DNA of 64,000 nt. Origin: Candidatus Poribacteria bacterium (GTDB lineage: Bacteria > Poribacteria > WGA-4E > WGA-3G). Positions 11,754 through 17,060 of the stretch are shown here, piece by piece (within the stretch, counting starts at the first letter, position 1; each line of letters starts with the position of its first letter). The notes under the pieces were generated by a model. It saw only the letters and a program-made list of their open reading frames with translations. It did no database searches and was not told where the DNA came from. Made by a program: the position numbers and the translations under genes. The DNA is taken from NCBI GenBank assembly GCA_965197475.1, contig CBDANF010000002.1:96001-160000 (forward strand), given 5' to 3'.

Positions 11754-12104
11754 ATGAAGATACCAAATGCTGAACGTGCTATTGTTGACATTCGCAAGCT
11801 GCGAGATTATTGCCTCAATCCGCAGCATAATAAAGGAAAACATAAAGCCCGCTTATTTACCTCCATACTCGGTATGAATACTAATGATGCAGAAGACTTA
11901 CGTAACGTCTTATTAGAAGTTGTCAAGAAACAGGACGCACAATTAGCTGAAAAGAACGCGTATGGGCAGCGTTATACGCTTGATTTTACGTTAAATTGGA
12001 ACGACAAGCAAGCGACAATTCGTAGTGCTTGGATTATTGAAACTGATTCTGACATCCCAAAATTGACAACTGTGTTTCCATTGATACATAAAGGTGAACT
12101 ATGA
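11754..12104 (+). CDS. DUF6883-like protein (putative toxin, usual partner of DUF4926)
   Basis: MKIPNAERAIVDIRKLRDYCLNPQHNKGKHKARLF..YGQRY..IRSAWII..PKLTT; ATGA overlap with the next gene. Confidence 0.8.
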   Translation: MKIPNAERAIVDIRKLRDYCLNPQHNKGKHKARLFTSILGMNTNDAEDLRNVLLEVVKKQDAQLAEKNAYGQRYTLDFTLNWNDKQATIRSAWIIETDSDIPKLTTVFPLIHKGEL

Positions 12105-15100
12105 AAAATAAATTTTCCAATGACACCTCAAATATAGGAAATTCGACTGAACACAGCCAGGAACCTGCAGGTAATGGCAAAATCAAACTTCTGGATGTCG
12201 TTGCGCTTGCACAGGATATTCCTGAGCATAATCTCAAACGTGGAGAAACCGGTACTGTCGTTGAAATCCTTTCGAACGGCGAAGCGTTTGAGGTGGAATT
12301 TAGTGATGAGAATGGACAGATGTATAAGTGTACAAGTTTCCTTGCATCTCAACTCACAGTCCTCCACGATGAACCAATAAATACAAATCCGAACCGTCAA
12401 GCAAATGACGCCATACAAGGTTACTACTATCAACTGTGCCATACTGTAGATGCTTGGTTAGACCTTGCTGATAATGATATTCTCTATGTTGAAGTTGCGG
12501 AAGATTTTGATATAGAGTCAGATGGAACGTTTACAGCCACGCAAGTCAAACACACACAACGCAATATATCACTTAGATCTGAGCAAGTGATTAACGCAAT
12601 CAACAACTTTTGGAAATTGCGAAATGACAATTCTAATCGGTGTGTGAAATTCCGTCTCCTCACAAAATCTAAGATCGCAAAAGAACAAGAGGACCCCTTT
12701 GGAACGGATAAACCAGGCCTTGAGTTATGGAGTCATTGTTCCGGTGATGAAGTAGTAATCAAAAAAATATCCAACTTTTTGCAGAATGATGGGAAAATAT
12801 CAGCGGAAGTAAGTGAATTTCTCGAACAAACAGAACCGCAAAATATTTATGAACAACTCATTGAACCCATTACTTGGGAGACAGGTAGCAAACCTATAAG
12901 TTATGTTGAACGATCCATAAATAGTAAATTAATTCTTCATGGTAGTCGACAACCTATCCCAGTACCACCTTCTGATGCCAAGAAAGTAGTTGGCTGTCTT
13001 CTCAAAGAAACCTTAACGGTTGCAACACAAAAAGAAAACCGAGAACTTACCAAAGCACGCTTCCTTGAAATTTTCGAGGAGCAAACCACACAAAGGATTC
13101 CGACACAGCATTTGCAACAGCTGCAAAGTCAAGTGACAATGATGCACAGTGTTGGAATGCCATCTTTTAAGGGTTCCTCCGATATTACTATCCAATTTCA
13201 ATCTCTAATACAAACTGAGATACCTCAAACATACTTGGATGTCCTTGTTCCAAGAACAGATCTACTCACAAGTATACAGACAAAACTCCAATCAGAAGGT
13301 ATATCTATAATCCATGGAGGAGCGGGAAAAGGAAAAACAACCCTCGCAAAATTGACTGCAAACGCTATAAGCGGAAAATGGTTTTGGCAGAGTTTCACAA
13401 AAATGGATCCGTTATCTAAAGAATTTTCACTTCAGGTTGCCCAACAGTTGAAACAGCTTGCTATTGCGATACATAATGAATCTTCTCAAGTCAATGTTGT
13501 CCTTGATGACTTGAGTTTACAATCTAAACATCTACATGGATATAAAGAAGAATTAGGTGTTGTGGTCTATAATGTCCTTAATCGTGGTGCAAAATTGTTG
13601 ATTACAAGCCAACATAAAACACCTCTTAATTTCATTACCAGCCTTGGTTTACCATCATCTATCGTCATAGATGTTCCTAACTTTACCATGCCCGAAATTG
13701 AGCAATTTGCTGAACAAATGGGGTGTCCGACTAATGACTTAAAAACTTGTGTAATCTCTATTCAAACACATACACTTGGACATCCAAAACTCGTACACGC
13801 TCGATTAGCTCAATTGCGGGAGAAAAACTGGAAAGAAAAACACACAATAGAAAGTCTCATGCAAACGCCCCAAGAAGTGAAAGACGAACGCGAAGCAGCA
13901 CGACAGTTAGTTTCCAAATTACCCGAAGATCAACAGAAATTTCTCTATAGACTTAGCCTAATGCATACTGTATTTAGGAGAGATTATGCTCTCAACATTG
14001 GCGAAATCCCAGAACCCGTTCAGAATCCTGGAATTGTACTTGATCAATTGGACGGTCCATGGATAGATCGTGTTAATGAAACTTACTTCACTATTTCACC
14101 TTTACTAATTGACGCAGCTAAACAGGTTTGGTCTAAGAACGTGACAAACAAACTTCACACACAGATTGCAAACGCAATCCTTGAAGCAGATCATCTAACC
14201 ACGATAGAAGCACGAACTGTATTTCATCATAGTATACAAGGACAAAATAAAAAAGGATTAATTTCTGTCATTTATTCTTTGATAACTGCCCCAGAGGATG
14301 ATTGGCAAAATATTTGTCAAGAATTCTCATGGATCAGATATCTTAAAACCAATCCTCCCGATGAATTTTTCCCTGGGGATTTCTTTGAAAATCACATGTT
14401 TCGATCATTGCAGTATCGATTTTCGGTAGAGGTGGAACCAGAATTTGCCCCGAAAATACTTGAAATCTGGGATAACGAAACCAAAAAATACAAAACACAT
14501 CAATCATATATGATGGCACGTCTAATGCTCACAACACAAGCATTGATATATAATCAAGCGCAATTTTCAGCCAAGAAATTGATGAGTTATCTAAAAGAAA
14601 TCTATGATATAAAAAACATGGGCAAAAAGGTTTGGAAGTCATACTTTAATTCCATGGAAGAATTAAAAGAAATAAACATTGATGAATCAAACTTTTTCAG
14701 TTTCCTATTTAGTTGTATCTATATGCGTCCAGAAATCAACGCTGTTTTCCTCAATGAACTTATTGATACACTGGATAAACTTGATCCAAGAATTAGAACG
14801 TTATTATTGGTTGACTTTGAGAATGATACCATTCAATCACAACTTTTGAATAATGGAGTTTGGTTAACAGAGGAAAAACTTGAAAATCCTAATTGGACAA
14901 GATGTCTTGAAGCTTTTGATAAAGTAATTGAAAAAACTATTGCATGGGGTTATCCATATATCGCTGCTGCATCAGCAAGAATTAAAGCCATCACCCATGA
15001 CGAAAAATTGAGCGACCCAGATACCGCTCATAAAGTTCTTCAAGATATTATATCAAAACTTGGTACTTTACCAACGATAGAAGAAGCACAAGCAGTCGTA

Positions 15101-16651: not shown

Positions 16652-17060
16652 ATATCTCTTGGATACATCAACATGTAGTTTGTTGATGGAGGATAATCCC
16701 AGAGTGAAAGGGCGTTTAGATTCTTTGACTGAGTCGGACTACCCTTTTACTTGTCCAATCGTTAAGGGCGAAATTCTGTTCGGAATTGGTCGGCTCCCTG
16801 CCGGAAAAAGAAGACAAGATCTCGAACAAAGGGCAAATGAACTATTTGCTGAAGTTCCGTGTGACCCAATCCCTGAGAATGTTAGTGATGTTTATGCACA
16901 GATAAAAGTTGCTGCTCAACAGCAGGGAACGTCTTTAGGTGAATGCGACCTTTGGATTGCTGCTACGGCTTTATCTCTTGATGCAATCCTGGTTGCTTCC
17001 GATTCTGATTATGAAAGAATAGTTGGATTAGGGCTCCGTCTGGAAGATTGGAAAAATTAA
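16644..17060 (+). CDS. vapC: PIN-domain VapC-family toxin
   Basis: YLLDTS, GEILFG, DLWIAATA, VASDSDY, LEDW; acidic active-site residues intact; overlaps the upstream stop by 8 nt. Confidence 0.9.
   Translation: MNKYLLDTSTCSLLMEDNPRVKGRLDSLTESDYPFTCPIVKGEILFGIGRLPAGKRRQDLEQRANELFAEVPCDPIPENVSDVYAQIKVAAQQQGTSLGECDLWIAATALSLDAILVASDSDYERIVGLGLRLEDWKN

Follow-up and report, generated by a model that had tools for sequence, protein, structure and literature searches.

Can the sensor protein of a putative antiphage system also serve as the antitoxin for two toxins encoded on either side of it? This question is raised by a locus in a 64,000-nucleotide stretch of DNA from a Candidatus Poribacteria bacterium (contig CBDANF010000002.1, positions 96,001 to 160,000 of the forward strand; hereinafter, the window), where three overlapping open reading frames (ORFs) on the same strand, at 11754-17060, encode a DUF6883 protein, a 1516-residue protein with the layout of a STAND-type sensor nuclease, and a PIN domain protein. 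A preliminary description, made from the sequence alone, had suggested that the sensor doubles as the antitoxin for both toxins. Our analysis indicates that this protein probably carries two working neutralizing modules, so that both toxins would be held by the sensor. For the C-terminal tail and the PIN toxin, the suggestion is backed by co-occurrence, homology, selection and a complex model; for the N-terminal DUF4926 domain and the DUF6883 toxin, the evidence is co-occurrence. Each toxin is found only together with its fused module, and the fusions are conserved and under selection. The parts of the locus, all on the plus strand, are the following.

11754-12104, +: DUF6883 gene, 116 residues, putative BECR-type RNase toxin (Pfam DUF6883, E-value 4.9e-29)
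12101-12385, +: N-terminal module of the central protein, leader and DUF4926, residues 1-95; putative immunity or antitoxin domain for DUF6883 (Pfam)
12386-13150, +: Cap4/LmuA-like PD-(D/E)xK nuclease domain, the built-in effector; end approximate (Pfam, PADLOC, invariant residues)
13150-14305, +: STAND-type P-loop NTPase with helical and winged-helix parts; limits approximate (Walker residues, AlphaFold, Foldseek)
14306-16465, +: all-helical TPR-like repeat region, putative sensor (AlphaFold, Foldseek)
16466-16651, +: C-terminal tail, residues ~1456-1516, predicted fused VapB-type toxin-binding module (co-occurrence, homology, complex model)
16644-17060, +: PIN/VapC-type toxin gene, 138 residues (Pfam PIN, E-value 1.4e-13)
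17106-18734, +: methyltransferase (Mod) of a type III restriction-modification (R-M) system (Pfam N6_N4_Mtase, E-value 2.2e-39; PADLOC MTase_III, E-value 5.4e-167)
18744-21326, +: restriction subunit (Res) of the type III R-M system (Pfam ResIII, E-value 1.9e-13; PADLOC REase_III, E-value 2.3e-163)

The DUF6883 gene and the central gene share an ATGA overlap at 12101-12104, and the central gene and the PIN gene overlap by 8 nucleotides at 16644-16651; the reading of three overlapping genes in the preliminary description is borne out by the ORF listing and by the starts of the homologues. Alternative upstream starts of the ORFs exist at 11682 for the DUF6883 gene and at 16608 for the PIN gene; the starts used here are the ATG codons at 11754 and 16644, where the homologues begin. 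Independent assemblies show these reading frames in 26 further genome loci. A frameshift error in this assembly is ruled out as the source of the fusion, which is not unique to the assembly: in those 26 loci, too, the tail is in frame before PIN. The evidence from sequencing runs consists of contigs, from mixed strains: contigs in runs X4 and X7 span 11829-12331, and a contig from an RNA library (run X15) spans 16586-16692. RNA-library contigs also cover parts of the central gene, although coverage by such contigs is no proof of transcription.

The C-terminal tail and the PIN toxin

The preliminary description had noticed, before an intact PIN toxin, a charged tail of about 50 residues in the position of a VapB-type antitoxin. 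This tail is a real, conserved module of about 60 residues (residues ~1456-1516 of the central protein). Eight segments of the window's proteins were searched against 44 related loci, obtained in a genome scan with one genome per species, and against the window itself; two of these 45 loci could not be assessed for the combination of tail and PIN, and the remainder are distributed as follows.

Tail intact and in frame with the C-terminal core next to it: PIN present in 27 loci, absent in 2 (L017, L032)
Tail frameshifted or stopped: PIN present in 0 loci, absent in 6 (L011, L015, L019, L025, L028, L042)
Tail absent: PIN present in 0 loci, absent in 8

Thus, the tail is degraded in 6 of the 8 tail-bearing loci that have no PIN. 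The association is significant both for intact against broken tails (Fisher p 1.7e-5) and for intact tails against the lack of an intact tail (Fisher p 1.5e-9), values that overstate the independence of the loci because the genomes are kin. The PIN start codon lies at -8, -4, -1 or +2 nucleotides from the stop codon of the central gene in the 26 related loci.

The tail is not confined to the large sensor proteins. When an 80-residue tail sequence was compared to 1.84 billion representative proteins, 67 matches were obtained, most of them small proteins with the tail at the C-terminus, the N-terminal parts of which contain AF2212-like, HicB-like, DUF433 or RHH domains detected above the Pfam cut-offs; DUF2281 was detected weakly (19.1 bits against a cut-off of 26.5), and one of the 67 matches is a TPR protein. 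In P0168 and its relatives, the N-terminal part is RHH-like by eye and has no Pfam match. A metagenome scan for small genes of the P0168 type showed that all six of those that bear the tail are directly followed by a PIN gene, the product of which is 47-53% identical to the PIN protein of the window, whereas none of the 43 genes that share the N-terminal part only has an adjacent PIN homologue on the same strand; among these 43 loci, 4 contain a 29-30% identical PIN on the opposite strand, about 1 kb away. Within Poribacteria, locus L119 contains a gene for an AF2212-tail protein followed by a PIN gene (78% identity) and then Mod, in the position of the cassette, and in L126 and L141, PIN and Mod come after mini-genes that encode DUF4926 joined to the tail.

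The ratio of nonsynonymous to synonymous substitution rates (dN/dS) differs within the tail, at 0.13 in its conserved part and 0.38 in its linker, and is 0.20 for PIN; for the core that precedes the tail, the values are 0.37 over the last 300 codons and 0.26 over the last 100 codons. Modelled without a partner, the tail yields a predicted local distance difference test (pLDDT) score of 33 to 62, compared to 70 in complex with PIN. Complex prediction for PIN and a 76-residue tail resulted in interface scores (ipSAE, the interaction prediction score from aligned errors) of 0.85, 0.85 and 0.84, compared to 0.00 for the best of three controls, in agreement with the pairing of VapC and C-terminal tail envisaged in the preliminary description. 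The score mark applied here was attained by 58 of 80 solved complexes, compared to 2 of 110 mismatched pairs; these counts are a rough guide, because our own alignments were used. The PIN-tail runs share at least 96% of the contacts, and the partner pLDDT is at least 69. The predicted interface consists of PIN residues 8-9, 43-51 and 99-101, beside D7, E43 and D102, and of tail residues 24-58. Thus, without a partner the tail appears to be flexible, and in the predicted complex it folds against the surface of PIN near the catalytic acidic residues.

The PIN protein itself is matched by the VapC models of NCBIfam, in all cases below the curated cut-offs. Among 27 copies, E43, D102 and D122 are invariant, and D120 is nearly so; D7 is replaced by E in six copies and by Q in one (the PIN gene of L027, at 10233-10646), and the copies with an altered D7 may partly be inactive. 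Taken together, co-occurrence and decay, homology, purifying selection and the complex model make it well supported, at the level of comparative sequence analysis and structure prediction, that PIN has its cognate antitoxin part in the tail.

Two promoter-like sites, at 16047-16075 and 16124-16153 on the plus strand with 10 of 12 matches each, lie within the central gene, ahead of the segment for the tail and of the PIN gene. These sites, between 16047 and 16153, could hint at a separate short tail product, but the scan overall performed no better than chance: 21 promoter-like and 11 terminator-like sites were detected in 11400-21600, compared to 26.2 and 8.6 in shuffled sequences, so that the scan is uninformative.

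The N-terminal DUF4926 domain and the putative DUF6883 toxin

The complete DUF4926-like domain that had been recognized at the N-terminus of the central protein is confirmed by Pfam, with DUF4926 at residues 30-87 (nucleotides ~12188-12361; E-value 5.1e-20). According to the available part of a recent preprint, DUF6883 corresponds to BECR-Tox3, and the conserved DUF4926 gene downstream of it likely encodes the immunity protein (10.64898/2026.08.28.747851). In the same part of that preprint, DUF4926 appears standalone and the toxin in MuF fusions, and a DUF4926-sensor fusion is not among the forms described (10.64898/2026.08.28.747851). Such a pair is also found free-standing in the genome of the window's host (5.70 Mb in 3 contigs, with one copy of the central gene), where a DUF6883 gene, the product of which is 66% identical to that of the window, is followed by a 101-residue DUF4926 gene whose leader is of the same type (C3:797871-798527). 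The presence of this pair in the same genome suggests the origin of the fusion and, along with the preprint, agrees with the statement in the preliminary description that DUF4926 usually occurs as a standalone gene behind DUF6883.

Among the loci in which the central protein starts with DUF4926, 8 of 14 contain DUF6883 (6 full-length genes and 2 remnants), compared to none of the 27 loci without DUF4926 (Fisher p 3.1e-5, a value overstated by kinship). The dN/dS of DUF6883 is 0.20 over six copies, and that of DUF4926 is 0.10 beside the toxin and 0.13 when the domain is an orphan; hence both ends of the central protein are under purifying selection, with 0.13 for the tail and 0.10 to 0.13 for DUF4926. 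Unlike the tail, DUF4926 shows no decay where the neighboring toxin is gone. From this sequence evidence, the N-terminal DUF4926 is considered a putative immunity domain for the upstream DUF6883 toxin-like protein.

A third DUF4926 gene of the host genome (C3:1175229-1175444, minus strand; 71 residues) overlaps, with its 3' end, the start of a 108-residue gene, which we take, by eye and without a Pfam scan, to be DUF433-like.

Domain architecture and distribution of the central protein

Between the two end modules, the central protein has the nuclease, P-loop NTPase and TPR arrangement that had been proposed for it. The Pfam model Cap4_nuclease matches residues 107-227 (E-value 1.1e-7; 32.8 bits against a cut-off of 26.2), and the PADLOC model LmuA matches the nuclease domain with an E-value of 9.6e-16; the Pfam models nSTAND3 and NACHT match around residues 386-540, below their cut-offs. 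With PADLOC 2.0.0, no Avs model matches the central protein, and the only matches are those of LmuA, DUF4297 and mad8 at the level of domains. In an alignment of 25 family members, the nuclease residues E131, E134, D135, D137, Q148 and K150 are invariant, as are G406, G411, K412 and T413 of the Walker A motif; in the Walker B pair, D469 never varies and D470 hardly does. The assignment of these conserved residues to the named nuclease and Walker motifs is ours.

Structure prediction points in the same direction. The alignment-based AlphaFold model of residues 96-735 (pLDDT 81.6) has Avs3 (8dgc) as its best Foldseek match, with an E-value of 2.1e-11, and further matches to CED-4, Apaf-1, plant NLR resistosomes, MalT and the LmuA structure 9nxx. 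The model of residues 736-1516 (pLDDT 83.1; predicted template modelling score 0.76) consists entirely of helices, and the Foldseek matches of residues 736-1455 are TPR superhelices, namely Ski3, Ctr9, consensus TPR, OGT and IFITs. The central protein thus has an Avs-like layout of nuclease, STAND and TPR regions, although it is not recognized by the curated Avs models; its role in antiphage defense is putative.

A search with residues 95-1460 of the central protein as the query yielded 397 family proteins at the threshold E-value of 0.001 or lower, of which the best 120 are 60-98% identical to the protein of the window. The family is large and comes nearly entirely from Candidatus Poribacteria, the host of the window being a sponge symbiont. 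According to their titles, the 44 loci of the genome scan include 39 from Poribacteria, 2 from Latescibacterota, 1 from Acidobacteriota (32% identity), 1 from a Gammaproteobacteria bin and 1 from an "uncultured bacterium". The lengths of the best 120 family proteins cluster near 1360, 1430, 1445 and 1505-1515 residues, because the two end modules are each present or absent. These modules are each optional and assort independently of one another; the best 120 of the 397 proteins are distributed as follows.

DUF4926 at the N-terminus: 33 with tail, 15 without tail
Lys/Arg-rich N-terminus: 33 with tail, 3 without tail
Other N-terminus: 23 with tail, 13 without tail

About one third of the family members (P0002, P0003, P0009 and others) start with 10-15 residues that are strongly enriched in Lys and Arg instead of DUF4926.

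Genomic context and the type III restriction-modification slot

The operon of the type III R-M system begins 45 nucleotides downstream of the PIN gene. To the left are genes for a YjgF/L-PSP-family protein (a putative endoribonuclease) and an enoyl reductase, and to the right is a phosphoglucomutase-like gene; because housekeeping genes are found on both sides, the island consists of five genes, those for DUF6883, the STAND protein, PIN, Mod and Res. At 23655-25037, on the minus strand, the window encodes a 460-residue protein in which a PhyH-type dioxygenase domain is found together with HEAT repeats.

The link to R-M systems extends beyond the window, with Mod or Res, or fragments of these genes, found within the flanks of 35 of the 44 related loci. 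In L023, L026 and L028, the STAND gene is located between Mod and Res, and so is PIN in L023 and L026. A plain DUF6883-DUF4926 pair occupies the slot of the cassette in L095 and L096, lying between Mod and Res in L095, and an unfused gene for an AbiV-like HEPN protein is located between Mod and Res in L167, L169 and L171. In several loci, 5' fragments of Mod flank the cassette, and the identities of the N- and C-terminal parts of the core vary independently between loci. The STAND, DUF6883-DUF4926 and AbiV-like forms, along with the Mod fragments, imply that the R-M locus contains a variable slot for cargo exchange, located either between the two R-M genes or immediately upstream of Mod.

DUF4926 itself is attached to several types of cargo. 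Related DUF4926 modules (63-88% identity) head about 15 FRG-domain proteins (one of 387 residues, the rest of 561-580 residues) and 6 HEPN_AbiV proteins (591-631 residues). The domain is also joined to HicB-like antitoxins (P0241, P0243, P0245 and P0254), in what appear to be multi-antitoxin fusions; the 221-residue P0245 contains a HicB-like domain, DUF4926 and the full tail, and P0241 shows a partial tail match. The preliminary description had also raised the double fusion around a different central cargo; what was found is DUF4926 on FRG, HEPN_AbiV and HicB-like proteins, along with P0245, in which DUF4926 and the tail are joined to a HicB-like domain. In 176 Poribacteria genomes, the query for the DUF4926-FRG fusion yielded matches to the DUF4926 part and scattered FRG-like matches, and no more; the DUF4926-AbiV fusion was not found fused in these genomes, where the AbiV-like cargo is unfused.

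There are also internally deleted forms, in which DUF4926 is followed by the last ~300 residues of the core and the tail, or directly by the tail. A contig joint in runs X4 and X7 (of unrecorded type) and in the RNA library X16 swaps 12354-16495 for 30 letters and so yields such a DUF4926-tail mini form, and DUF4926-tail mini-genes were also found as ORFs of 140-180 residues upstream of Mod in many Poribacteria genomes.

A possible mechanism and alternative explanations

The locus is probably a single five-gene defense cassette that consists of the DUF6883 toxin, the Avs-like STAND protein, the PIN/VapC toxin, and the type III Mod and Res subunits. Under this scenario, the STAND protein would have captured the neutralizing halves of two toxin-antitoxin (TA) pairs through translational fusion: the N-terminal DUF4926 immunity domain would serve the upstream RNase-like DUF6883 toxin, and the VapB-type peptide of ~60 residues at the C-terminus would serve the downstream, translationally coupled PIN toxin, so that both toxins would be kept inactive on the sensor protein. 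Given that only complete translation supplies the C-terminal antitoxin, truncation or shut-off of the long gene should free PIN. Loss of the complete protein, through a nonsense mutation, a frameshift, promoter loss or phage shut-off, would then release both PIN and the RNase, and such release would stabilize the long defense gene in the manner of addiction. If the sensor were destroyed or remodelled, a second, RNA-directed abortive response might follow.

Several observations weigh against this scenario or limit its reach. In L014, L036, L037 and L040, PIN persists beside truncated or interrupted STAND genes, which implies that protection by addiction does not extend to the entire gene; many genomes also retain, next to Mod, short tail relics with no PIN. 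Both end modules are dispensable: the tail is missing from 31, and DUF4926 from 72, of the best 120 family proteins. The orphan DUF4926 domains are as conserved as those beside the toxin, so that they may serve distant paralogous toxins or have another role. The STAND protein has a nuclease effector of its own and needs none in trans. As for the strength of the evidence, in addition to the kinship of the genomes that inflates the Fisher tests, PIN-antitoxin complexes are abundant among solved structures, and the complex score may therefore partly reflect likeness to these.

The presence of an effector in the protein bears also on an account, unlikely in our view, in which the end modules are adaptor sites that load the two RNases onto the sensor, and in which recognition of a phage protein by the TPR region with STAND oligomerization, or an attack by a phage protein or protease on the sensor or the linked R-M enzyme, releases or activates the RNases and so adds RNA-directed abortive infection to the DNase effector; such a design would be similar to that of PrrC, discussed below. 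The predicted binding of the tail to PIN, the location of the STAND gene (L023, L026, L028) and of the AbiV-like HEPN gene (L167, L169, L171) between Mod and Res, and the occurrence of one DUF4926 module on several different defense-type cargos are all compatible with docked effectors, and Kaur et al. 2020 (PMC7159879) describe NTPase conflict systems that have recruited toxins derived from TA pairs as co-effectors. However, both toxins are optional in the family, the nuclease effector is already part of the protein, and the predicted position of the tail beside the catalytic residues of PIN points to plain inhibition. Somewhat doubtful, but not so unlikely, is a selfish origin, in which two ordinary TA modules inserted at a recombination hot spot in the R-M locus and small deletions fused the antitoxin genes to the gene between them, with fusions that neutralize the toxins and bring no new function to the sensor. 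The slot is indeed highly mosaic, with the independent N- and C-terminal core identities, the Mod 5' fragments, the DUF4926-tail mini-genes and the forms in which DUF4926 is joined to the C-terminal core and tail; the contig joint that skips 12354-16495 in X4, X7 and X16 fits this account, as does the presence, elsewhere in the same slot, of plain AF2212-tail and PIN genes (L119) and of plain DUF6883 and DUF4926 genes (L095, L096). The fusions, however, are old and maintained, being retained in family members that are 60-80% identical, both ends are under strong purifying selection, and fusion to DUF4926 is seen again in at least three unrelated cargos. Moreover, selfish hitch-hiking also predicts working antitoxin ends and departs from the scenario of a sensor with two neutralizing modules only with regard to the benefit to the host.

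It appears highly improbable that the end modules are no antitoxins at all but sensor or regulatory parts of the STAND protein, with the toxin genes nearby as a consequence of mere clustering in a defense island. The continued conservation of orphan DUF4926 domains is compatible with this explanation, and so is the lack of a family match for the tail: there is none in Pfam (best match Reo_P9, E-value 0.09 to 0.15) or NCBIfam, and no solved chain in the PDB matches it (best E-value 0.76), so that the tail fits no named antitoxin family. Nevertheless, in the loci examined the toxins never occur without their modules, the tail decayed in 6 of 8 loci after PIN loss, the tail is found on canonical antitoxin scaffolds before homologous PIN proteins, the gene overlaps are typical of translational coupling, and the PIN-tail complex model passes its controls.

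A broader generalization of the sensor with two neutralizing modules seems quite unlikely as yet. It would hold that the type III R-M loci of Poribacteria contain an exchangeable, bracketed slot, opened by a BECR toxin gene and DUF4926 and closed by a VapB-like tail and PIN, between which a defense protein (a STAND nuclease, HEPN/AbiV or FRG protein) is inserted in one chain with one or two neutralizing modules; the sensor would be a hub silencing two RNases that are freed when a phage destroys, shuts off or activates the sensor or the linked R-M enzyme. If true, this would be a general guard design in which immune receptors are bracketed by toxins, and TA pairs supply them with effectors that can be detached and with a check on their integrity.

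As a rule, STAND sensors and TA systems are regarded as distinct defense modules; here they are joined in one polypeptide, in an arrangement that is conserved across many species of one phylum and recurs with other cargo proteins. Such an arrangement would tie cell survival to an intact sensor. If the ends do neutralize the toxins, the cassette would be a natural example of a long defense gene that is guarded against loss-of-function mutation and would provide a possible route from sensor destruction to abortive infection; two further additions would be a new, portable family of peptides that bind toxins of a VapC subfamily and, in type III R-M loci, a slot of variable content.

Comparison with known systems

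One parallel is provided by proteins of the CapRel type, fused toxin-antitoxin defense proteins in which the antitoxin element is covalently part of the phage-sensing protein and toxin and antitoxin reside in one chain. In the cassette described here, unlike in CapRel, the toxins are encoded by separate genes, and one sensor bears two different neutralizing modules. In the full text of open papers, no description of an antitoxin-tagged STAND protein was found; in the available part of the literature, the nearest published idea is that of TA-derived toxins as co-effectors of NTPase systems (Kaur et al. 2020, PMC7159879).

With the DUF6883 (BECR-Tox3)/DUF4926 pair, the locus shares the Pfam families, the order with the toxin first and the overlap of the genes; unlike in that pair, the immunity domain here forms the N-terminal end of a large defense protein, or of FRG, HEPN_AbiV or HicB-like proteins in related strains. 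The resemblance to VapBC consists of a PIN toxin with conserved acidic residues, an upstream frame that ends in a predicted toxin-binding peptide and overlaps the toxin start, and standalone relatives of the tail with RHH, AF2212-like, HicB-like or DUF433 N-terminal domains. Unlike in VapBC, the antitoxin part is the C-terminus of a 1516-residue STAND protein and has no gene of its own, and, in contrast to the small, autoregulating VapB, a Pfam scan of the central protein found no DNA-binding antitoxin domain. With neither such a domain nor a separate gene, any autoregulation or antitoxin lability has to operate in another way.

The location of the cassette brings to mind the PrrC anticodon nuclease, which, according to the available part of the source, is embedded in the type Ic R-M locus EcoprrI and kept latent by the linked R-M enzyme (PMC1484252). 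As with PrrC, a putative abortive-type effector gene is found inside or beside an R-M operon; the R-M system here, however, is of type III, not type I, the cargo is different, and the likeness rests on gene position. With Avs proteins, especially Avs3 with its Cap4-like nuclease, the central protein shares the N-terminal nuclease, the central STAND NTPase and the C-terminal TPR-like region. Unlike these proteins, it remains unmatched by the PADLOC Avs models, scores below the cut-offs of the Pfam STAND models, carries an immunity domain and an antitoxin-like tail, and is encoded between two toxin genes in a type III R-M setting. Thus, the cassette is neither a recognized Avs subtype nor a canonical VapB system; it resembles an Avs protein that has been joined to a VapBC and a BECR pair within an R-M locus.

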